Virus record (IMG/VR): IMGVR_UViG_3300046787_000286
Coordinates: 16,060-80,059 of that record
DNA: 64,000 nucleotides
From: a virus
Strand: one strand, 5' to 3'
Position 1 is the stretch's first letter. Every line of letters begins with the position of its first letter. Position numbers and translations under genes: made by a program. Shown here one piece after another: positions 5,819 through 59,811 of the stretch. The notes under the pieces are model-generated. The model was not told the origin of the DNA. It ran no database searches and saw only the letters and a list, made by a program, of their open reading frames with translations.

Positions 5819-7210
5819 ATGACCAAAAGCGTTTTTCAAAGCTCAGCAGATGAAATGCAAAGCAAGTTAGGTCCTGCAATGTGCCTTGCTAAATGGCAAC
5901 AAACCAGTTTACACTTAACTACAGGGCACACCAATTCATGCTATCATCCTCCGTTGCACAAAATTGAACTGAGTGACATAGAAAATAATCCGTCTGGATT
6001 GCATAACACTGAGCATAAAAAACAGCAACGTGTGATAATGCTAAAGAACGAACGCCCTTCAGAATGTTCCTACTGCTGGAACATGGAAGACCTGGGCAAA
6101 ACAAGCGATAGGCACTACAGATCAGGCGAACCTTGGGCAGCAGAACACTATGACACAATCAAAAACTCAACTGGACTCGAACGGGACGTTACACCTTCAT
6201 ACGTGGAGGTTAACTTTAATAATGCTTGCAATCTACGTTGCTCTTATTGCTCTCCTCAGTATAGTTCTAGCTGGGCCGATGAGTCCAATAGGCACGGCGC
6301 ATATCCTACTAGCGTACCTCATAACGCACCTGAATATTTTAGTGGCAGTAGGAGACCTATCCCGTCTAGGGAAGCTAATCCATACGTTGATGCGTTTTGG
6401 GAGTGGTGGCCGGAGCTTTACCCTAATCTAAAACATTTTAGAATGACTGGCGGCGAGCCACTAATGGATAAGAATACACACCGTGTATTAGATTACGTTA
6501 TAGCTAACCCCAGCCCGCAACTGCACTTGAACGTAACTTCAAACTTTTCAGTAGAAGAAGTACTGTGGCAAAAGTATCTAGACAAAGTCAAGCGCATTTG
6601 CGACGGCCGCATCGAACACTTTATGCAGTATGTGAGTTTAGATGGCTTTGGATCGCAAGCAGAATACATTAGACACGGGCTTGACTTTAGATTACTGTGG
6701 GACAGAGTAAATCAATTCTTAACAGAAGTTCCTGAGTATTCTAGTTTGACATTTATTGTAACAATGAATAATCTAAGCGTGAATTCATTCAGCAGCTTGA
6801 TGTCGGGCATATTTGGGTTGCGTCAGATATATTCTAAAACGTATCAACGTGTGTGGTTCGACACCCCTGTGCTTCGCGATCCTGCGTGGCAAAGTTTACA
6901 AATACTACCTGAAAGCTATGCTGACCGTTTGGAAACAACCTGGGCATGGATGGTAAATCCCTGTAAAGATGTGTCTGAGCCTAATCCGCTGCATGTGTTC
7001 AAGGACTATGAGCTTGCTAGATTAGATCGTGACATAGCGTGGATGCGTGAAGGGCAGAAAATGGACCCTGTGGAATTAAACAAGCGCAAAGCAGACTTCT
7101 ATCGTTTCTTTTCGGAGCACGATCGACGTCGCGGCACAGACTTCAATTTAATATTCCCTGAAATGAAATCATTCTGGCAGGAATGTGAGTACCATGCCAA
7201 AAACTCCTAA
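5819..7210 (+). CDS. radical SAM family protein, paralog 1
   Basis: CNLRCSYC (CxxxCxxC) and GGEP motifs; N-terminal C..C..CxxC; C-terminal D.RR..FPE motif. Confidence 0.7.
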   Translation: MTKSVFQSSADEMQSKLGPAMCLAKWQQTSLHLTTGHTNSCYHPPLHKIELSDIENNPSGLHNTEHKKQQRVIMLKNERPSECSYCWNMEDLGKTSDRHYRSGEPWAAEHYDTIKNSTGLERDVTPSYVEVNFNNACNLRCSYCSPQYSSSWADESNRHGAYPTSVPHNAPEYFSGSRRPIPSREANPYVDAFWEWWPELYPNLKHFRMTGGEPLMDKNTHRVLDYVIANPSPQLHLNVTSNFSVEEVLWQKYLDKVKRICDGRIEHFMQYVSLDGFGSQAEYIRHGLDFRLLWDRVNQFLTEVPEYSSLTFIVTMNNLSVNSFSSLMSGIFGLRQIYSKTYQRVWFDTPVLRDPAWQSLQILPESYADRLETTWAWMVNPCKDVSEPNPLHVFKDYELARLDRDIAWMREGQKMDPVELNKRKADFYRFFSEHDRRRGTDFNLIFPEMKSFWQECEYHAKNS

Positions 7211-8270: not shown

Positions 8271-9561
8271 ACTTTCACCTAGCTTTTGTGCTGCCAAATG
8301 GTACAATGCTACTATATGGCTGGGCTCAGGGCAAACAACCAGTTGCCATCACCCTCCTGCACATGCCATAGATGCAGAAGCAGTTAAAACAAACCCTGCT
8401 GCATTGCACAATACCAAACAAAAGAAAATTGATCGTTTAATGATGCAAAATGGGGAAAGACCCTCAGGTTGCGAATACTGTTGGAAAATTGAAGACATGG
8501 GAGTAGATGCAGTTAGCGATCGTGTGTACAAATCCAAGATATATCCCATAAAGGCTTTAAATGACGCATACTCGACACCTGCTGCACATGACGTGGATCT
8601 CCGTACTTTGGAGATTGCTTTTGATCGTACTTGTCAGTTTGCTTGTAGCTATTGCAACCCAGCATTTAGTTCTACATGGGTTAATGATATTAAACGTAAC
8701 GGACCCTACACTAACTTGGTTAGCGATGGTAGGAATCACTTCACTCATACTCATGAGTCTAGTCAGCTATATCGCTACGGGGAAACCAATCCGTATGTTG
8801 AGGCATTTTTTGACTGGTGGGAATCGAGCTTACATAGAACACTTCAAGAGCTACGAATCACAGGAGGAGAGCCCCTCATGTCCGCCCACACATGGAAGCT
8901 CATTGATTGGTTCAAAACAAATTCGGGCAAGAGTAATACACGCTTGGCTATCAATAGTAACCTCGGGACTGAGGTCGACGTCACACGTTTACTGGAATCC
9001 ACGCAGGGTCTAGACGTAGAAATATACACTAGCATGGAAGCTGTAGGTGCGCAAGCTGAATACATTCGCGACGGACTTGTATATGCAGACTGGCAAGCAA
9101 ACGTAGATAAGCTGTTAAACGCAGGTGTTACAGTACACTTTATGGCAACCATTAATGCTCTTTGTTTGGAAACTCTAACAGATCATTTAAATTACTTGCT
9201 GACCTTGAAAGAATTATACGGGCGTGATCGTGTTAATTTTACATTAAATATTCTACGCTTTCCGTCATTTCAAAGTGCTCTAGTACTGGATCCAGATGAT
9301 CGCACCTATTTTAAATTGGCGTTGCAGTCATGGCTAAACGCCAACGGCAACAGCCCTTTATTGCACGAACACGAAGTTAATCACACACAACGATTAATTG
9401 ATTACTTGGACATTGTTAAAACACCGCACTCGGATACGTTTGACATGCCCAAGTTACTGAATGACTTTAAACATTTCTACGAGCAATACGACCTGCGTAG
9501 GAAAAAGAATTTAAAAGAAACATTCCCTATTATTGGATATTGGTATAATTTATGTCTATAA
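8233..9561 (+). CDS. radical SAM family protein, paralog 2
   Basis: FDRTCQFACSYCNP, ITGGEP; start chosen at MNDLEY by N-terminal alignment to paralog 1. Confidence 0.7.
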   Translation: MNDLEYRQQVLDKLSPSFCAAKWYNATIWLGSGQTTSCHHPPAHAIDAEAVKTNPAALHNTKQKKIDRLMMQNGERPSGCEYCWKIEDMGVDAVSDRVYKSKIYPIKALNDAYSTPAAHDVDLRTLEIAFDRTCQFACSYCNPAFSSTWVNDIKRNGPYTNLVSDGRNHFTHTHESSQLYRYGETNPYVEAFFDWWESSLHRTLQELRITGGEPLMSAHTWKLIDWFKTNSGKSNTRLAINSNLGTEVDVTRLLESTQGLDVEIYTSMEAVGAQAEYIRDGLVYADWQANVDKLLNAGVTVHFMATINALCLETLTDHLNYLLTLKELYGRDRVNFTLNILRFPSFQSALVLDPDDRTYFKLALQSWLNANGNSPLLHEHEVNHTQRLIDYLDIVKTPHSDTFDMPKLLNDFKHFYEQYDLRRKKNLKETFPIIGYWYNLCL

Positions 9562-11255
9562 CCCAGACTTTAACAACATTGCGTGAACAATACAATGTGC
9601 TAGCAGTGGTCGATTTAGACCAAACTGCTAGCATGAGTTATTCAGACATGCAAGATTGGCTGCGTAATCAGTGTCAATCCTTGTATGCGCCAGAGTTCAA
9701 CCCAGGCGACAAAATTATTTTTACTTACTCAACAGACACGTATGTAAATGATGATAAGATTGGGTTATTGATTCGCAATTTACAAATATCCATACTTGCA
9801 GTTGATATTAGTACTGCATTTATCACAGTGGTTAGCACAAACCCAACGTTGCTAGCAGAACTAAAGCTAGTGCAAGCAATGAGTGAACTAGATATAGCAA
9901 TTGACGGTGTAGTAGTTGATGCGCCTTGGAACAAAAAAATTGTCAACAAGTACCCTAGCTCTATTAGGGAGTTGTACGATTATGATTCTGTTAACCCATT
10001 AAAGATGTCAATTAATGATTTAAGTGATCGCGAGAGGTCATTGCTTACCAAAAGTAAAGTATTTTGCATATACCCTTGGACACATTTAAATGCAGGTCCA
10101 GACGGACAGGCGTACCCGTGCTGCATGACTGATTTTAAATGTTCTGTGGGGGACACTAAAAAAGATACTCTGGCTACTATATGGAACAATGACCCAATGA
10201 AGCAGGTGCGCTTAGACATGCTAAACGAAACGCCCATTGAAGGATGTAGCCGCTGTTACGAACAAGAAAAGTCGGGCTTTGTTTCTGGCAGAATCAGTGC
10301 AAACAAGCACCACGGACATCATATTAGCAAGGTACTAGAAACCAACCCCGACGGTAGCCTGGACCAATTTAAAATGGTGTACTGGGATATTCGATTTAGT
10401 AACTTGTGTAATTTACGGTGCCGTAGCTGTGGGCACATTTACAGTAGTCAATGGTATCAAGATCAGGCCAAGCTAGCAGGGCCCGCCTGGGCAATTAACA
10501 ATCAAGTGTTGAATTATGCAGGGCGCACCGAAACAGATATGTGGGAACAATTAGAACCCCATTTAGAGTACGTGGAGCAGATTTATTTCGCGGGCGGTGA
10601 GCCATTACTAATGGAAGAACACTATAACATTCTTGAAGAATTACTCAAGCGTGGCCGCACAGATGTTCGATTGATATACAATACAAACTTTACGCACACT
10701 AAGTTAAAGGACAAGTATGTGTTTGAATACTGGAAAAAGTTTGATAGTGTTAGCGTAGGTGCAAGTTTAGACGCAATGGGCCCACGTGGCGAGTATATTA
10801 GAAAAGGCACAAACTGGGCGCAAGTTGAACGCAACAGAGAAAAGATGCTTGAAATTTGCCCGGGTGTTGATTTTTATATTAGTGCAACCCTGAGCATTCT
10901 AAATGCCAAACACCTGCCGGACTTTCATAAAAACTGGGTGGAGCGTGGACTTATTAAAACTCAGGACTTTAACGTAAACATTCTATTAGATCCTTCGTAC
11001 TATCGAATTGACATTGCATCAGAACAGTACAAAGAAGAAATAGCTGCACTGTATCGCGAACACTTGTTCTGGATTGAACAACACGGTGATCATCTTGGCC
11101 GTGCTACTACAGGATTTGAATCAGCTATTAAGTTAATGAATGCAACGGACAACAGCACGTTAATTCCCAAGTTCTGGGAAAAGACTGAGCAGTTGGATGC
11201 TTTAAGAAATGAAACATGCTTGGATATCATACCTGAATTAAAGGCGCTAAAATGA
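9552..11255 (+). CDS. radical SAM family protein, paralog 3 (with N-terminal extension)
   Basis: FSNLCNLRCRSCG, FAGGEP; extra ~170 aa N-terminal domain. Confidence 0.7.
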   Translation: MSITQTLTTLREQYNVLAVVDLDQTASMSYSDMQDWLRNQCQSLYAPEFNPGDKIIFTYSTDTYVNDDKIGLLIRNLQISILAVDISTAFITVVSTNPTLLAELKLVQAMSELDIAIDGVVVDAPWNKKIVNKYPSSIRELYDYDSVNPLKMSINDLSDRERSLLTKSKVFCIYPWTHLNAGPDGQAYPCCMTDFKCSVGDTKKDTLATIWNNDPMKQVRLDMLNETPIEGCSRCYEQEKSGFVSGRISANKHHGHHISKVLETNPDGSLDQFKMVYWDIRFSNLCNLRCRSCGHIYSSQWYQDQAKLAGPAWAINNQVLNYAGRTETDMWEQLEPHLEYVEQIYFAGGEPLLMEEHYNILEELLKRGRTDVRLIYNTNFTHTKLKDKYVFEYWKKFDSVSVGASLDAMGPRGEYIRKGTNWAQVERNREKMLEICPGVDFYISATLSILNAKHLPDFHKNWVERGLIKTQDFNVNILLDPSYYRIDIASEQYKEEIAALYREHLFWIEQHGDHLGRATTGFESAIKLMNATDNSTLIPKFWEKTEQLDALRNETCLDIIPELKALK

Positions 11256-17344: not shown

Positions 17345-18826
17345 ATGAATACACTAGGCATATCAGCAGGGTTTCATGATGCAGCAGCGTCTGTAATTGA
17401 CCGCGACGGTAACATACTGTTTGCCAGTCATTCTGAACGTTATAGTAAACAAAAGAGTGACTCAGATATTTCGTTAGAAATGTTAAACGAAATAGATATG
17501 AGTACTGTAGATACCATTGCGTACTACGAGCGTCCTTTAGTTAAACAACTACGTCAATTTTATTCCGGACAAGGGATTGAGTGGGATAAGCTAACTACTC
17601 GACAAGTATTAGAACAACAGTTGGGCTACAACAGAATTGGCAATCGCAAGCTAAAAAGCTACAATCATCACTTGTGTCATGCAGCCGCAGGCTTTCAAAC
17701 CAGCTCGTTTGATCGTGCTACTGTAGTTGTGATTGATGCAGTAGGCGAGTTTGAAACCATTACTATATGGGGAGCAGAATATGATAAACACGGTCGTGCA
17801 AAGTATAAGAAACTTTGGCAACAACATTACCCACATTCAATTGGACTCTTTTACACTGGAGTTACTCAGCGGGTTGGCCTACGCCCACTAGACGAAGAAT
17901 ACATTCTAATGGGAATGGCAGCATACGGCAGTAACGACGTTAGTAATCGCATGCGTTATGATCTAATAGACGACGAATGGGAAATACGTTTCAAGGAGAA
18001 CTTGCATCTAGGACTGTCAGTTAAATATCTAAGCGATTATTCAGACTTTGATATTGCTGCCGGCGCACAAGACTTGGTAGAAGACCTGATACTCAACGTT
18101 ATGGTTCGAGCAAGAAAGTTCAAGTGGAGCAGTAATTTAGTCTACATGGGCGGTGTTGCTCTTAATTGCTCTGCTAATAGGAGAATTGGAAATTATTTCG
18201 ATAATATATGGATTATGCCTAATCCTGGCGATGCTGGCAGTAGTCTTGGCGCTGCCGCTTTGGCTCATGGGCGTAAAATTAACTGGAGCAACGCTTATCT
18301 CGGGCATGATATTCCTGGTGCTTATCCTGTTAACGACATACTTGATGAGCTACTTGTTCGGAAGATTGTGGGAGTGGCTTCCGGGAGAGCCGAGTTCGGT
18401 CCAAGAGCACTTGGAAACAGAAGCCTGCTTGCAGATCCTAGAGGCAGCGAGATTAAGGAGAAAGTAAATGACATTAAACGTAGACAACAATTCAGACCAT
18501 TTGCGCCCGTTATTTTGGAGGAACTGGCTGATACTTACTTTGATATGCCTCGTGGCTTCAGTAATAGTAGGTATATGCAGTCAGTCGCTCGTTGTAGGGT
18601 ACCTGAGTTATTTCCTGCTATCGTTCACGCTGACGGCACTAGTCGTGTTCAGACAGTGCCGAAAGATGGATCAGGCATTAGAGAACTGCTTGAAAAATGG
18701 TACGTAATGACTGACTGCCCCATGTTGCTTAACACAAGTTTAAACATACGTGGGGAGCCTATGGTTAACGATCGAGCAGACGCTGACCGCTTTGAACGAG
18801 AGTATGGGGTTAGAGTATGTTCTTAA
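17345..18826 (+). CDS. carbamoyltransferase (NodU/CmcH family)
   Basis: N-terminal MNTLGISAGFHDAAASVID..HSERYSKQK and overall architecture typical of O-carbamoyltransferases. Confidence 0.7.
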   Translation: MNTLGISAGFHDAAASVIDRDGNILFASHSERYSKQKSDSDISLEMLNEIDMSTVDTIAYYERPLVKQLRQFYSGQGIEWDKLTTRQVLEQQLGYNRIGNRKLKSYNHHLCHAAAGFQTSSFDRATVVVIDAVGEFETITIWGAEYDKHGRAKYKKLWQQHYPHSIGLFYTGVTQRVGLRPLDEEYILMGMAAYGSNDVSNRMRYDLIDDEWEIRFKENLHLGLSVKYLSDYSDFDIAAGAQDLVEDLILNVMVRARKFKWSSNLVYMGGVALNCSANRRIGNYFDNIWIMPNPGDAGSSLGAAALAHGRKINWSNAYLGHDIPGAYPVNDILDELLVRKIVGVASGRAEFGPRALGNRSLLADPRGSEIKEKVNDIKRRQQFRPFAPVILEELADTYFDMPRGFSNSRYMQSVARCRVPELFPAIVHADGTSRVQTVPKDGSGIRELLEKWYVMTDCPMLLNTSLNIRGEPMVNDRADADRFEREYGVRVCS

Positions 18827-31456: not shown

Positions 31457-31485
31457 ATTATAGCAAATCGGGCATTATTGGTCAA
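31457..31485 (-). promoter_or_regulatory. sigma70-like promoter TTGACC-N17-TATAAT
   Basis: identical 31-nt core GTTGACCAATAATGCCCGATTTGCTATAATA also present at 34598 and 51223. Confidence 0.65.
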
Positions 31486-38735: not shown

Positions 38736-38764
38736 ATTATAGCAAAAGTTGATTTATTGGTCAA
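38736..38764 (-). promoter_or_regulatory. sigma70-like promoter TTGACC-N17-TATAAT
   Basis: -10 at 38736-38741, -35 at 38759-38764, upstream of cobS. Confidence 0.6.
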
Positions 38765-43009: not shown

Positions 43010-43093
43010 TGGTGCCCAGGGCGAGACTCGAACTCGCACGGATTTCTCCACTACCACCTCAAGATAGCGTGGCTACCATTACACCACCTGGGC
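43010..43093 (-). tRNA. tRNA-Leu (anticodon GAG), class II
   Basis: acceptor GCCCAGG/CCTGGGC, anticodon loop TTGAGGT, long variable arm, encoded CCA. Confidence 0.75.
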
Positions 43094-43468
43094 TTATCTT
43101 ATTGCTTTTGCTCTAGCGTGAATAACATCATCAACATTGCCTTTAACAATGACATTGGTGTAGGTGTCTACAAATTCGCTAGCATGATCTACCACACGAT
43201 TGTCAGGTTCGTGGTAGGTCCTAACTCGCTCGCTACCTGCTAGGTTGCGTTCCTTGTCTTTGTGGAAGTGTGCCTGAATGCGTGACAAGCAGGTAATGTA
43301 GGCTGCACGTTTGTTATCTTCGCGGCTACGGCTGTTAGTGCCGTTCGCTTGAATGCCAGTGGGCTCATGAATGCATCGGCAACAATTTTGATGCTTGTTA
43401 CGATGTTGCCCACCTTTGCCTGTTCCAGAGAACCACTCGTAACGAAATTGATCTTCTGTAATTTTCAT
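43094..43468 (-). CDS. peptidyl-tRNA hydrolase domain protein (ArfB/class I release factor-like, GGQ motif)
   Basis: SGTGKGGQHRNK...HEPTGIQANG; start moved to MKITEDQ so that it does not overlap the tRNA. Confidence 0.6.
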   Translation of the reverse strand: MKITEDQFRYEWFSGTGKGGQHRNKHQNCCRCIHEPTGIQANGTNSRSREDNKRAAYITCLSRIQAHFHKDKERNLAGSERVRTYHEPDNRVVDHASEFVDTYTNVIVKGNVDDVIHARAKAIR

Positions 43469-43483
43469 TGCAGTCTCCTGATT

Positions 43484-43557
43484 GGTGCGCGATGAGAGAT
43501 TCGAACTCCCGACATCTGTCGAGTCAGAACAGCGCTCTACCACTGAGCTAATCGCGC
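43484..43557 (-). tRNA. tRNA-Val (anticodon GAC) probable
   Basis: GCGCGAT acceptor, D arm GCTC/GAGC, anticodon loop CTGACTC (T at position 37 is unusual), T loop TTCGAAT. Confidence 0.55.
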
Positions 43558-44153: not shown

Positions 44154-44720
44154 TTATACCAATTGTTCTGCTTGGAGCAAAGCAACTGTGTCGGCATCCA
44201 ATTCGATTTCGGTGCGAACGTTGAGTTCTAACACTTTGTCATTGATGCTTTGCTTTTCTTTCTTGAGGCTTCGCATGTCGGCTTTGTAGGCTTCGATTTG
44301 AAGGTTGTCTAACACGCCAGTGTCGACGTTGTCGTTGTAACCGTAAACACGGTTCTTGTTGTCTGTGTTGCGAAGTTTTTCTAACTTGCCGTTGAGAACA
44401 ACGTAAGACTCAGCAGCCTTGCTCTCTGTCAGGCCTTTCAGGTGTCCTAGACGCTTGTCAACAAACGCAGCTTCAGCAAGCAAATCGCTTACGCCACTTT
44501 CTACGTTAGCACGACCAACACGGGCACGGATGCCATACAACACCTTGGTCAACTTTGCACGACGAAGGTCGCTTTCAACTAATGCACCACGTGCAACAGC
44601 GATCTCACCTTCAACGGTCTGGAACTCGTTTAGGGAGATCGATGTTTTTACATCAATGGTTTTGATGTGATCCTGAATTGTGTTTTGCAGGGCGTTTGCT
44701 TTGCGAAGTGTAATCTTCAT
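44154..44720 (-). CDS. hypothetical protein
   Basis: 188 aa, coiled-coil character. Confidence 0.5.
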   Translation of the reverse strand: MKITLRKANALQNTIQDHIKTIDVKTSISLNEFQTVEGEIAVARGALVESDLRRAKLTKVLYGIRARVGRANVESGVSDLLAEAAFVDKRLGHLKGLTESKAAESYVVLNGKLEKLRNTDNKNRVYGYNDNVDTGVLDNLQIEAYKADMRSLKKEKQSINDKVLELNVRTEIELDADTVALLQAEQLV

Positions 44721-44743
44721 ATTCGAGTTCCTTTCTATTTGAA

Positions 44744-44772
44744 TTAGTAGCAGTGAGCGTATGGCAAGTCAA
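44744..44772 (-). promoter_or_regulatory. sigma70-like promoter TTGACT-N17-TACTAA
   Basis: -10 at 44744-44749, -35 at 44767-44772. Confidence 0.45.
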
Positions 44773-45025
44773 TCGCCGGACAATGTGCAAGAGACATTAG
44801 CGAATGATAATTTTTCAGGTTATCACTTTACTAAAGCAAAATACAAGAGACAGAGGATACCAATATTTCCGAGCATCAACAAACAGCGACTATAACAGCC
44901 AGTATAATCTCGGATCACTGGATCACGATTGGTAATTCCAGTAAGCATTTCAAGTGCTAACTAGAGGTGCAATCTCTCATCTCCATACACATCACAGTCC
45001 TGTTTTAAGAAACAGGCAAAAACTT

Positions 45026-45103
45026 TGGAGTCCCGGGTAGGATTCAAACCTACGAATCGATGGATTTGCAATCCACGCCATTAAGTCGCTCTGGTACCGA
45101 GAC
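45026..45103 (-). tRNA. tRNA-Cys (anticodon GCA)
   Basis: acceptor GTCTCGG/CCGGGAC, anticodon loop TTGCAAA, T arm GTAGG-TTTGAAT-CCTAC, CCA. Confidence 0.65.
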
Positions 45104-45526
45104 ATATTCTTTATATGTAAACACACTAAAACGCGACCTTAGTTTCCCAGTTACGGTATTGTCAGTTGGTATAATGTGTTTGCATATAAAGTGGCGGACT
45201 GAGAATACATCCTAACCTAGTAACACCTCGGACATTATTACAAACCTTGCGAGTCTGCTTTCTTCCGACTTCCACTAAAACCATATTGCTATGTATTCTA
45301 GTCTGTTACCAGTATCGCCGTTTTTAAAGACAGGCAGTAGTCTTGTCGTCACATGCTACTCTACACCATCTATCCCGTTGACCTTTAGAGCCATTCACTG
45401 TCGCTAAACAGCTACGAAACTTCCAGTATAAACAGATTTCACCTTGCGAGTTACGTCTGACTGTATTGCCTTGCGGCTACAGCATTAGATACTTTTCACA
45501 CATGACCGAGTCAGTCTTTGCATTTT

Positions 45527-45598
45527 AATCGTTAGCGGGAGTTGAACCCGCAGTCGACTCCTTAACAGGGAGTTGGCCTACCATTAGCCTATAACAAC
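45527..45598 (-). tRNA. tRNA-Asn (anticodon GTT), no encoded CCA
   Basis: GTTGTTA TA GGCT AATGGTA GGCC A ACTCC CTGTTAA GGAGT CGACT GCGGG TTCAACT CCCGC TAACGAT T. Confidence 0.65.
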
Positions 45599-46105
45599 CT
45601 ACTGCGATGTGCTGACTCAGTTGCTTCATACTCTTTTGGAATACAAAATACAACACACCACGTTCCTTTTGTCTTGCGAACTACTCAGACGTCTTTTGCG
45701 ATATGTGTCGGGTCTCGGCTTTCGCGTACCTCCACTTACCACTCAAACTGCATACGAGCCCTAGGGTGCAACCCCTCGGACAAATACACTACCCTTTCTC
45801 ATACCAATTAACTGGACTGGTTTCGTTGTGAAGTCAGCACCACCTGTTACTTTCCATCTACTCAAGTTCCCCTTGATGCAATCTCAGGCTTGTAAGCAAA
45901 CGTTCTTTCCACAACATCCAGCGTCATTGTTACAACCACCGGTCTTATCAGTGATCGCTCCCTTGCAGGAGTGAGCAGGCTTGCCTAAGTGAACTATTTT
46001 TAGTAGCGGAGTTATGTAGGCATACCTCCTTTGGCTGTGTCACCACAGTTATTCTTCACTAGATAGCAAGCTACCTAGTAGGACATTAAGCTGCCCTTAT
46101 ATTCT

Positions 46106-46134
46106 ATTATAACATTGATTGCTGCACTTGTCAA
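46106..46134 (-). promoter_or_regulatory. sigma70 consensus promoter TTGACA-N17-TATAAT
   Basis: -10 at 46106-46111, -35 at 46129-46134; faces the ORF-free RNA region. Confidence 0.6.
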
Positions 46135-46164
46135 CCATCAACATTACCAAATCTGTAAACAACT

Positions 46165-46240
46165 GCACACTTACAGGACTCGAACCTGACGACCAGGGCA
46201 ATAGCCCTAGCTATGAATCCAACCATATCAGCGTGGCCTA
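46165..46240 (-). other. tRNA-like element (T-arm CAGG-TTCGAGT-CCTG), unresolved
   Basis: canonical T-loop but I could not build an acceptor or anticodon stem. Confidence 0.25.
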
Positions 46241-46288
46241 CGCCTTTATGTGCATGTGTTTAAAGACTTTGTTACTGTCTAAGTATCT

Positions 46289-46317
46289 ATTATAGCAAAT
46301 TACGATATACTTGTCAA
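46289..46317 (-). promoter_or_regulatory. sigma70 consensus promoter TTGACA-N17-TATAAT
   Basis: -10 at 46289-46294, -35 at 46312-46317; divergent from the radical SAM gene 46333. Confidence 0.6.
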
Positions 46318-46332
46318 CTACTTTTTTGCATT

Positions 46333-47541
46333 TTGGGTAAAGTGTTATATAAATATTCCACTATGAATAAATCTAAAACTTTTTGTATAGCCACTCATGT
46401 TTGTATGGCAGTACAAAACGAAGTTGACTACTGTTGTTGCAACGCCAACAAAGAAAGTTGGAAAACAAATGACCACCAAGTCATGCGTGTAAACGAACAC
46501 TCTCCCAAACAAGCCTGGAACAGCTATTCTCGTAAAATAATAAGAGAAGTATTAGATAATGGGCAACAACATCATTCGTGCCAGAAGTGTTGGGACATTG
46601 AGGCTGCTGGTAGCATAAGTCAACGTATGACATTGAATAATATGTTTGTTGATGTTGAGTTACTCAACGACCAACCGCAGATTATAATTATAAAACCCGG
46701 AAATACTTGTAATTTTGCATGCCGAATGTGCAATCCTGAAACTAGCTCAAGCTGGTATTCGGATGCATACAAATTAGAAAAATCTACTTTGCCCTTTTCC
46801 GAATACACTCGTAAGTTTGAAACTATACGAAACAGTTTTAACCGTGATAATGAAAATTTTTGGAATACCTTCAAACAGTGGTTGCCAACTATAAAGTACA
46901 TTGACATTTACGGCGGAGAACCATTCTTAGCTCCTGCATTGTTTGATCTACTAGAGCACGGAGTTAACATAGGTGCTGCAAAAGAAGTTTCTTTGCAACT
47001 GCATACAAATGCATCAATCATGAATCAACATTATCTTGATATTTTAAGTCAGTACAAAAAAGTTACCTGTAAAGTAAGTATTGATTCAAGTGATCCGAAG
47101 AAAAACGATTACATACGGCATCAAGGAAACTTTGATAAAACAATAGCTAATGCAAAATTATTCAAAACATTTTTTGATCAACATAAAAATTTAAATTTTG
47201 GAGTAACATACACACTTACGCCGTTGAATGTGTTCCATGTGGATCAAGATAAAGAACTTATTAGCGAACTATTAGAATTACCTAAAATAGATGTAAACAT
47301 AGTAACTACACCAGAATACGACATACGTCACTTACCGATTCCAGTTAAGGACTTTCTAATTAATAATATTAACGATAGCTCGGTGAACAATTTTCTAAAA
47401 CAAACTATACCAGGTTGCGACATTGAGTGGCCAAAATTCTGTAAAGTAACTGATGAGTTAGATGCCATACGCAACCAAAGTTTTGCCGAAACATTCCCCG
47501 AATGGTGGGAAATGCTCAAACCATACTGGGTGTCTCAATGA
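46333..47541 (+). CDS. radical SAM family protein, paralog 8 (isolated copy)
   Basis: PGNTCNFACRMCNP, IYGGEP, C-terminal FPEWW motif; N-terminal Cys cluster. Confidence 0.65.
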   Translation: MGKVLYKYSTMNKSKTFCIATHVCMAVQNEVDYCCCNANKESWKTNDHQVMRVNEHSPKQAWNSYSRKIIREVLDNGQQHHSCQKCWDIEAAGSISQRMTLNNMFVDVELLNDQPQIIIIKPGNTCNFACRMCNPETSSSWYSDAYKLEKSTLPFSEYTRKFETIRNSFNRDNENFWNTFKQWLPTIKYIDIYGGEPFLAPALFDLLEHGVNIGAAKEVSLQLHTNASIMNQHYLDILSQYKKVTCKVSIDSSDPKKNDYIRHQGNFDKTIANAKLFKTFFDQHKNLNFGVTYTLTPLNVFHVDQDKELISELLELPKIDVNIVTTPEYDIRHLPIPVKDFLINNINDSSVNNFLKQTIPGCDIEWPKFCKVTDELDAIRNQSFAETFPEWWEMLKPYWVSQ

Positions 47542-51222: not shown

Positions 51223-51251
51223 ATTATAGCAAATCGGGCATTTTTGGTCAA
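51223..51251 (-). promoter_or_regulatory. sigma70-like promoter TTGACC-N17-TATAAT
   Basis: -10 at 51223-51228, -35 at 51246-51251; same core as 31457 and 34598. Confidence 0.6.
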
Positions 51252-51995: not shown

Positions 51996-52071
51996 TGGCT
52001 CCCCAGCGTGGGATCGAACCACGGACACCTTGATTAACAGTCAAGTGCAACTACCGCTGTGCTACTGGGGA
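51996..52071 (-). tRNA. tRNA-Asn (anticodon GTT)
   Basis: acceptor TCCCCAG/CTGGGGA, anticodon arm CTTGA-CTGTTAA-TCAAG. Confidence 0.75.
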
Positions 52072-53639: not shown

Positions 53640-53730
53640 CATTGTAGGCAGGGCTCGAACCTGCACACAGTCCTTACGGATAATGTCGCCCCTATAACGG
53701 GGCAATGTCTACCAATTCCATCACTACGAG
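53640..53730 (-). other. tRNA-like element (T-arm GCAGG-TTCGAGC-CCTGC plus GCCCC hairpin), unresolved
   Basis: T-arm is clear but acceptor pairing is not. Confidence 0.25.
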
Positions 53731-54659: not shown

Positions 54660-54770
54660 TAGGAGCGGTGGGAATTGAACCCACGTTAACTGCCTTATCT
54701 AGACAGTGCTTACGGCTGTATAAGGGCCGCCCTTAGGCCAACATTAGCAACACTCCCATTGAAAAACACA
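54660..54770 (-). other. tRNA-like element ~110 nt (T-arm GTGGG-TTCAATT-CCCAC, CCA), class II-like or disrupted
   Basis: possible acceptor GGGAGTG/CGCTCCT, but I found no canonical anticodon arm. Confidence 0.3.
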
Positions 54771-55317: not shown

Positions 55318-55393
55318 GGCCCCGGAGGGAGGAATCGAACCTCCATTGGTTGTATACGGACCGTGTTACCATTACACTACAACCGGGATATAG
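55318..55393 (-). other. pseudo-tRNA/tRNA-like element (canonical D and T arms, no anticodon stem, ends CCT)
   Basis: GTGT-AATGGTA-ACAC and GGAGG-TTCGATT-CCTCC arms, but the middle does not fold. Confidence 0.3.
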
Positions 55394-59328: not shown

Positions 59329-59361
59329 CGCCTTGCAAGTTACTTACGTTGACACAAAAGG

Positions 59362-59390
59362 TAAAAAAGAATGCCCGCCGAAACGGGCAT
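59362..59390 (-). terminator. intrinsic terminator of the tmRNA gene
   Basis: ATGCCCG-UUUCGG-CGGGCAU followed by UCUUUUUU on the minus strand. Confidence 0.65.
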
Positions 59391-59776
59391 GGTTGTTTAG
59401 GTTACAAGGTAAGTCCTACCCCGGGTGCATGGGTTATTAAGCCAATACAGCAGCACGACGAGCGATTTTTACACCGCGAGCGTTGATAGCTACTTCACCT
59501 TTTGTATTTGCGTTTGCATTTACGTTTTTTTGCGTCTACGGCCGAGTTCCCCCAACCCTACGGCTTCTGCTTTGCCGAGCTGTCCACTTGTTTACTTGTT
59601 GCCCTGTCGAAACCATGGCAGGCCCATTATAAAACACACTATTCCGTTATCCCACGTCTAGAACGATAACTGGGGCTCCGTAGAGCTAATGTGTTTTATG
59701 GTGGACCTGGCGGGAGTCGAACCCGCGTCCAGAACACTTTTCTCTTTGCTTCTTTCCTTACGGTTTTTACAGCAAT
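59365..59776 (-). ncRNA. ssrA: circularly permuted (two-piece) tmRNA gene: acceptor piece (~59699-59776) - intervening hairpin - coding piece (~59365-59625) with tag reading frame 59440..59517
   Basis: 3' acceptor/T-arm GGACGCGGGTTCGACTCCCGCCAGGTCCACCA is nearly identical to the E. coli tmRNA 3' end. Downstream of it on the RNA lie GGGCCUGCCAUGGUUUCGACAGGG (5' acceptor/P2-like), resume codon GCA, the frame ANANTKGEVAINARGVKIARRAAVLA, and UAAUAA. Confidence 0.8.
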
Positions 59777-59782
59777 ACAACA

Positions 59783-59811
59783 ATTATATATGACTTCTTT
59801 TAAAAAGTCAA
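59783..59811 (-). promoter_or_regulatory. sigma70 consensus promoter TTGACT-N17-TATAAT driving ssrA
   Basis: -10 at 59783-59788, -35 at 59806-59811, minus strand. Confidence 0.7.

Follow-up and report, generated by a model that had tools for sequence, protein, structure and literature searches.

What occupies the 1.2 kb at positions 45104-46330 of this viral DNA, where no ORF of 60 aa or more is present? Within the window, i.e., the whole stretch of DNA that was analyzed (64,000 nt), the longest ORF between 44720 and 46333 has 58 aa (46119-46295, plus strand). The sequence-only reading of this DNA was right in finding no ORF of 60 aa or more there, and had taken the stretch for a probable locus of stable non-coding RNA on the minus strand. 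We are confident, at a probability of about 0.93, that this stretch without ORFs is a compact block of RNA genes, located within the tRNA island of a large phage that is uncultured, and that it is occupied mainly by a full-length GOLLD RNA encoded on the minus strand. The block holds two promoters, a tRNA-like element, GOLLD with a tRNA inside it and a 3' hairpin, which cover nearly all of 45104-46330, and for the annotation a seemingly empty 1.2-kb stretch becomes an explained block of RNA genes. Family membership, extent of the RNA, secondary structure, embedded tRNA and genomic context are established in this analysis.

The genome has a GC content of 43% and the proteins of the window match phage PHROGs; close to the locus an RF-1-domain protein, AhpC, an RNase H-like protein and radical SAM proteins are encoded. 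ARAGORN and Rfam gave 38 tRNA or tmRNA calls in the window, consisting of 37 tRNA or tRNA-like genes and one permuted tmRNA. When the region was compared with 50,697 phage records by megablast and blastn no match was obtained, and a 24-kb query matched these records only in short tRNA segments. Therefore, no cultured close relative of this genome exists among the deposited phage genomes. A host search with a motif specific for the 5' domain described below returned only seven MAG contigs from 185,579 species genomes. These come from five unrelated phyla and are probably mis-binned phage contigs.

The large RNA and its two domains

The window was scanned against all Rfam families, and GOLLD is the one strong match in the region apart from tRNAs. 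The conserved core of the GOLLD 3' domain (RF02032) is located at 45196-45661 on the minus strand and reaches 197.6 bits in cmscan (E = 3e-54), which exceeds the gathering score of 150 by 48 bits. The match covers model positions 1-416 of 416 without truncation. In a permissive Rfam scan (E ≤ 1) of 44700-46500 nothing was found besides GOLLD and two tRNAs, and ROOL (RF03087) gave no match in the window at gathering score or in this region at E ≤ 1. The RNA is a new member of GOLLD, and thus belongs to a known family and not to a new class of RNA. The description of GOLLD reportedly dates from 2009 and its cryo-EM structures from 2025. The sequence-only reading had proposed an Rfam scan as a check and had held that known elements alone would speak against its idea of the locus; such elements, with GOLLD as the large RNA, are essentially what explains the region. 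Its proposal of a stable minus-strand RNA stood nevertheless, as a structured and covarying RNA of ~0.9 kb starts just past the -10 box of the downstream promoter P2 (see below).

Upstream of the 3' domain, 444 nt are covered by no Rfam model. Relatives were collected by scanning IMG/VR with a generic motif of the GOLLD 3' end, from which 120 loci were fetched. An nhmmer search with the window sequence matched the Rfam part together with the 444 nt that precede it in 24 of these loci, with E-values between 1e-32 and 1e-98 for the 5' domain. In the 24 loci of this clade, all from viral metagenome contigs, the 5' and 3' domains are full-length and contiguous and form units of 849-902 nt. All 16 relatives tested exceed the RF02032 gathering score (175-226 bits). 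They sit in tRNA-dense regions on viral contigs of up to 385 kb. Since L081 and L089 are identical, the alignment consists of 23 distinct relatives and the window (24 sequences).

The consensus fold of the whole RNA, calculated with RNAalifold from the 24 sequences, has 233 pairs, of which 164 show at least one compensatory change. For the 5' domain (46097-45664) RNAalifold and pair counting gave 112 pairs with 96.5% of the cells paired and compensatory changes in 80 of the 112. Its covariation score is 0.557, compared to 0.05-0.09 when the partners were slid by 1-3 columns, and none of 500 shuffles equaled it. The covariation together with the contiguity to the 3' domain therefore shows that the ~440 nt at 45662-46099 (minus strand), delimited by nhmmer conservation and covariation, are a genuine multi-helix domain of the same RNA. 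In the 3' domain, the long-range helix that surrounds the multi-stem junction (alignment columns 742-750/895-903; window 45506-45498/45356-45348) covaries in seven of its nine pairs. The comparative alignment, which had been suggested earlier as a further check, thus revealed strong covariation across the ~0.9-kb RNA, and the GNRA-type hairpins named at the same time are present, with at least seven GNRA tetraloops (GCAA, GAAA, GUGA) capping minus-strand helices. GOLLD extends from ~46099 to 45196 (~904 nt) or, with the 3' hairpin, to 45109, which amounts to roughly 0.9-1.0 kb.

In a profile search of all 120 loci the 3' domain was detectable in 56 and the 5' domain in only 27, i.e., in the 24 clade loci and in L094, L118, and L005. 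This asymmetry reproduces the published one between the GOLLD domains.

Promoters and flanking elements

Two perfect TTGACA-N17-TATAAT sites had been reported on the minus strand, and both were recovered at the same positions with 12/12 matches to the consensus. Promoter P1 (46289-46317, minus strand) has its TTGACA at 46317-46312 and its TATAAT at 46294-46289, and promoter P2 (46106-46134, minus strand) has these boxes at 46134-46129 and 46111-46106; the spacer is 17 nt in both, and in both a TG precedes the -10 box. If one mismatch is allowed, the pattern occurs at 15 sites in the window, all of them on the minus strand between 31 and 61 kb. From shuffles 0.69 sites are expected and none of 100 shuffles reached 15, so that the promoters are not due to chance. 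P2 keeps its -35 and -10 boxes in the same place in five relatives (L084, L039, L004, L008, and L034). In the 24-sequence alignment the conservation of GOLLD begins 6-8 nt past the -10 box of P2, and the predicted transcription start of P2 at ~46099 is where this conservation begins. This suggests that P2, a consensus promoter of the sigma70 type, transcribes GOLLD. P1 points at the tRNA-like element just upstream of GOLLD and would drive its expression, as far as promoter use can be read from the sequence.

This non-canonical type-II tRNA-like element (46162-46256, minus strand) was recognized by its fold and by ARAGORN, which calls it 'tRNA-???' at 46165-46253. It comprises a 7-bp acceptor stem (UGCACAU/GUGUGCA), a D arm, an 8-bp variable arm and a T arm (CAGG-UUCGAGU-CCUG). 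The TTCGAGT hairpin described earlier as T-arm-like is indeed part of a tRNA-like fold, with its T-loop at 46184-46178 (minus strand). The anticodon arm is degenerate with a 6-nt loop (UUGGAU) in place of the 7-nt loop on a 5-bp stem that a canonical tRNA has, and ARAGORN assigns no anticodon. RF00005 does not match the element even at E ≤ 1. Because of the failing Rfam tRNA model and the 6-nt anticodon loop we filed it as tRNA-like and not as a tRNA. A covariance model was built from six clade copies, one of them the window, which scores 87.9 bits by construction. Outside the model set it matched L022 with 96.1 bits (E = 3.7e-21) and, weakly, L003, L047, and L049, all of which are clade loci; no match was obtained in ~77 non-clade loci. 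In L109, L006, L016, and L042 only ~20 nt separate the element from the GOLLD 5' end, and this gap holds no -35 box; in these loci the element may set the 5' end by being processed like a tRNA. The corresponding gap of the window is occupied by P2.

At the other side of the RNA a conserved hairpin (45109-45191, minus strand) follows directly after the Rfam 3' end. Its arms at 45191-45172 (CUUUAUAUGCAAACACAUUA) and 45128-45109 (UAGUGUGUUUACAUAUAAAG) form 19 pairs, and the fold has a z-score of -2.95 with none of 200 shuffles as stable. At least 15 relatives share this hairpin, and their loops range from 4 to 97 nt. The sequence of the upper stem does not vary (AAACACAUUA/UAGUGUGUUU), one C.A/A.C mismatch is conserved, and the lower stem covaries. 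Pair counting gave 94.4% paired cells, compensatory changes in 8 of 18 pairs and a covariation of 0.394 compared to at most 0.126 in the slid controls, where the lower stem is the unbiased part of the test as the sequences had been chosen by the upper-stem motif. No U-run follows the hairpin. It is possibly a 3'-end or processing element, perhaps an RNase III-type site or a block for exonucleases. As both the hairpin and the tRNA-like element are absent from the published description of GOLLD, we infer from their co-conservation that they belong to the unit. A helix closing the RNA between its leader and its 3' tail was considered as well and rejected, since RNAalifold gives three weak pairs for it, none of them compensatory. 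A more convincing place for the 3' tail is in the 3' hairpin, as its 5' arm, than in a closing helix. The hairpin and the nesting of the tRNA-Asn within a larger RNA had both been overlooked in the sequence-only reading.

The next gene downstream, 5 nt after the hairpin and just outside the locus, is tRNA-Cys(GCA) at 45026-45103 on the minus strand (ARAGORN; Rfam tRNA 47.1 bits). No terminator-like site was found in the sequence between GOLLD and this gene, and tRNA-Cys is probably co-transcribed with GOLLD.

The tRNA in the linker

The tRNA-Asn that had been noted earlier was confirmed by ARAGORN and by the Rfam tRNA model (64 bits) at 45526-45599 on the minus strand, with the anticodon GTT. 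In the GOLLD alignment it lies in the variable stretch of the model, a linker of the 3' domain which comes after the first 3'-domain hairpin and before the AAAAUGCAAAGACUG segment. A seemingly intact tRNA occupies the same slot in 20 of the 24 clade loci, compared to 4 of the 96 other GOLLD loci; in these the linker carries a tRNA for His, Leu, Gly or Ser. Of the remaining clade loci, L006 and L015 align across the slot but have no tRNA call, and L009 and L013 lack the linker tRNA.

The anticodon of the embedded tRNA differs between the loci of the clade. GTT was found in 11 loci, CTT in three and TTA in two (identical copies), and ATT, TTT, TGT, TCT, and GAT occur once each. These correspond to Asn-GUU, Lys-CUU, an ochre suppressor UUA, Asn-AUU, Lys-UUU, Thr-UGU, Arg-UCU, and Ile-GAU, respectively. 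T36 is kept in seven of the eight anticodons, which means that ANN codons are decoded. The tRNA bodies are homologous, as illustrated by Arg-TCT of L109 and Lys-TTT of L072, which are 89% identical. This indicates that the anticodon has shifted within one embedded tRNA lineage, and a swapping of unrelated tRNAs into the linker as cassettes was rejected.

Alternative explanations, known systems and a proposed role

A stretch between tRNA genes may also be a mere spacer of the tRNA island, with one real tRNA (Asn), decayed tRNA pseudogenes and promoters, and without any large functional RNA. The window is a dense tRNA array, and the element at 46162-46256, which is tRNA-like but degenerate and has no match to the Rfam tRNA model, fits this picture. 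However, in 24 viral loci the conservation extends over the full ~900 nt and 164 pairs covary, and compensatory upkeep of base pairs is not expected of a decaying spacer; with the full-length match of the GOLLD model 48 bits above threshold, we regard this explanation as extremely improbable. The size of the RNA, its many helices and its wealth of GNRA loops would also suit a different or new catalytic RNA, be it an intron of group I or II, an RNase P or some novel ribozyme, and catalysis is conceivable for this family. Yet no group I or II intron, RNase P RNA or ribozyme family matches at gathering score in the window or at E ≤ 1 in 44700-46500. The sequence-only reading had thus been correct in not recognizing RNase P or group I motifs, whereas its suggestion of a ribozyme is very unlikely to hold, as the 5' and 3' domains of GOLLD account for the whole length. 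What the cryo-EM studies describe is a cage of structural nature, and no active site is reported in them (PMC12286853).

The RNA could finally be mainly a precursor or processing scaffold for tRNAs (the tRNA-like element, Asn and Cys), in which the structured parts serve only as leader and spacer and direct the cleavage by RNase P, Z, E or III, and the excision of tRNA-Asn would then split the mature 'GOLLD' in two. Several features of the locus agree with this: tRNA-Asn is located inside the RNA, the linker tRNA appears intact in most of the clade, a tRNA or tRNA-like gene directly adjoins the 5' end in several relatives, and the 19-pair hairpin, which resembles dsRNA, stands between GOLLD and tRNA-Cys. 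Spacers do not need 440 and 466 nt of covarying structure of a tertiary type, however, and 92 of the 96 GOLLD loci outside the clade do without a linker tRNA. The whole fold is kept in L009 and L013 although the tRNA is missing, and in Mycobacterium GOLLD is expressed in a 32-tRNA cluster, but no product of the pseudo-tRNA inside it was detected (Behra 2019, PMC6582537). As the main function of the RNA, tRNA processing is therefore highly improbable; it is compatible with the GOLLD explanation as an added layer and not as a replacement.

GOLLD RNAs are longer than 800 nt, are found in phages and prophages near tRNA islands and combine a conserved 3' with a variable 5' region (PMC12286853). The env-38 GOLLD forms a protein-free D7 14-mer nanocage of 380 Å across, in which the 5' domains are the caps and the 3' domains the rings, and a disordered linker, sometimes with a tRNA, lies inside (PMC12286853). 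The GOLLD of S. agalactiae is a dodecamer, and in Mycolicibacterium, where tRNA-Phe is found in J13/15, a role in 'inhibited storage' was suggested (PMC12990946). The RNA described here shares with the references (RF02032; env-38 tetradecamer, PDB 9MEE; S. agalactiae dodecamer, PDB 9L0R) the full-model match of the 3' domain, a separate and less conserved 5' domain, the linker past the first 3'-domain hairpin, a length of more than 800 nt and the location in a phage tRNA island. In difference to the reference GOLLDs, this clade adds the conserved 3' hairpin, and a linker tRNA is the usual case. The 5' domain cannot be aligned by sequence with env-38 beyond the 13-nt motif ACGGGUGGUGCCG, the only one common to the 5' domains of the window and env-38, and a clade profile gave no nhmmer match to env-38; the env-38 text used for both comparisons is imperfect, with 816 of 833 nt and a 3' end that disagrees with the reverse primer.

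The copies in mycobacterial tRNA arrays (PMC6582537; Morgado 2020 as cited in PMC12990946) resemble this locus in the surrounding tRNA cluster, in the internal tRNA-like gene and in its position in J13/15. As far as these sources describe them, the mycobacterial copies belong to a large, horizontally acquired tRNA cluster. They are found in high-GC actinobacterial prophages or arrays and carry tRNA-Phe or a pseudo-tRNA, whereas the GOLLD of this phage with 43% GC carries an apparently intact tRNA-Asn(GUU) (64 bits). ROOL is likewise a large ornate RNA that phages and prophages encode close to tRNA islands; its nanocage, too, consists of RNA only and has an internal linker that is disordered (PMC12286853). 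ROOL (RF03087) is thus like GOLLD in size, context and cage but unlike it in sequence and fold. The sequence-only reading had drawn an analogy to the small stable RNAs of T4, which holds for the location in a tRNA region and extends no further, with no homology implied. The stable RNA species 1 and 2 of T4 are ~120-140 nt long, lie among the phage tRNA genes with which they are co-transcribed, and are not related to GOLLD.

To a specialist, a phage tRNA island is where a GOLLD that carries a tRNA in its linker would be expected. The remaining value lies in the features of the clade, i.e., the full 5' domain, the 3' hairpin, the tRNA-like neighbor at the 5' end and the shifting linker tRNA, which bear on the function of GOLLD. 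The window and the 23 distinct relatives are a tight clade, and with its covarying 5' domain, 3' hairpin and linker tRNA this comparative set can be used to ask if the tRNA in the cage is a cargo, and if the transcript ends are set by the hairpin and the tRNA-like element.

We propose that a minus-strand RNA is made from ~46099 to 45196 and continues into the clade-specific 3' hairpin that ends at 45109, where ends and processing of the transcript are predicted from the DNA. Its parts would be the structured 5' domain and the 3' domain that defines the family, with tRNA-Asn(GUU) inserted into the variable linker of the latter. By homology with the GOLLDs solved by cryo-EM, it may assemble by itself, with no protein involved, into a dihedral nanocage of 12 to 14 subunits, with the 5' domains as caps, the 3' domains as rings and the linker with tRNA-Asn toward the lumen. 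The number of subunits in GOLLD oligomers varies within the family (10, 12 or 14). As a member of this family, the RNA should form a multimeric nanocage with an inward-facing linker tRNA. As a GOLLD, the RNA would be expressed at levels that rise in the lytic growth of the phage, and the most likely candidate role is in phage translation or tRNA supply at this stage.

An idea that we consider unlikely, though worth stating, is that the linker tRNA of this clade is a maintained cargo and that the cage shelters, stores or displays tRNAs targeted by nucleases, countering the anticodon nucleases of the host. If this were true, the caged tRNA would act as a protected reserve or as a decoy against these enzymes. 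The PARIS nuclease AriB cleaves Lys-UUU, Thr-UGU, and Asn-GUU tRNAs, and all three occur among the embedded species of the clade. This overlap is only suggestive, as much of the pattern is explained by shared ancestry. The window contains a second tRNA-Asn(GUU) at 51996-52071, which could not be aligned with the embedded tRNA-Asn. Decoding alone therefore does not require the embedded copy, as the window has this second, unrelated tRNA of the same anticodon.

A possible phage-encoded ribosome-rescue set

The window carries a permuted, two-piece tmRNA gene at 59346-59791 on the minus strand (Rfam RF04321, 91 bits), which was also detected by ARAGORN, with the predicted tag peptide ANANTKGEVAINARGVKIARRAAVLA. 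A permuted tmRNA is also present in L047, a relative from the clade of IMG/VR loci that match the window over both GOLLD domains (754-1160, 98 bits). Permuted two-piece tmRNAs are usually carried by alpha- and beta-proteobacteria and by cyanobacteria, and the tmRNA type may thus give a hint to the host.

Inside the tRNA island an ORF with an RF-1 domain is found (43094-43543, minus strand; Pfam E-value 3e-14), by this match a ribosome rescue factor, either ArfB-like or peptidyl-tRNA-hydrolase-like. As listed, the ORF overlaps with tRNA-Val (43483-43557) and adjoins tRNA-Leu (43010-43093), and therefore its real start is probably located further downstream. Together, the RF-1 domain ORF and the tmRNA suggest that the phage encodes its own ribosome-rescue set.

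The linker tRNA and suppressor tRNAs near GOLLD

In the A1 alignment, which holds the clade loci, the tRNA embedded in the variable linker of the GOLLD RNA (slot at about +495 from the 5' end) forms a single homologous lineage. Within this lineage the anticodon has changed between GTT, ATT, CTT, TTT, TGT, TCT, GAT, and TTA, with T retained at position 36 in seven of the eight. The tRNA is deleted in L009 and L013; for L006 and L015 the alignment spans the linker slot, yet no tRNA was called there by ARAGORN. The linker tRNA of L081 (region 1002-1460) and of the identical L089 has the ochre anticodon UUA, and in L059 an amber CUA tRNA precedes the GOLLD by about 100 nt. These suppressor tRNAs near GOLLD may indicate stop-codon recoding in the respective phages.

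Other tRNA-like genes and the stretch behind tRNA-Cys

A second 'tRNA-???' of 91 nt was called by ARAGORN at 53640-53730 (minus strand; fold z = -2.4). Its acceptor stem and T arm are good and the variable arm is long, while the anticodon stem-loop GCCCC-GUUAUA-GGGGC has a loop of just 6 nt with UUA within. It could not be aligned with the tRNA-like element at 46162-46256. Rfam tRNA matches without an ARAGORN call lie on the same strand at 54660-54757 (38.5 bits) and 55320-55386 (32.8 bits). The former covers 98 nt on a model of 71 positions, which may point to an insertion or intron.

Between tRNA-Cys and a 188-aa ORF (44154-44720), for which neither a Pfam nor a PHROG match was obtained, a non-coding stretch of about 300 nt is located (44721-45025, minus strand), in which the hairpin CCUGUUU-CUUA-AAACAGG immediately follows tRNA-Cys.

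Promoter family and radical SAM genes

Near-consensus sigma70 promoters occur 15 times versus 0.69 expected, all on the minus strand between 31097 and 61172. The 29-mer TTGACCAATAATGCCCGATTTGCTATAAT is identical at 31457 and 34598, differs by one base at 51223, and recurs in related form at 38736.

Three radical SAM proteins are encoded on the plus strand (5819-7210, 9552-11255, and 46333-47541), one of them with a SPASM domain. Together with the carbamoyltransferase (17345-18826) reported beside them, they may constitute a modification pathway. The third gene is divergent from P1, the GOLLD block promoter at 46317-46289.
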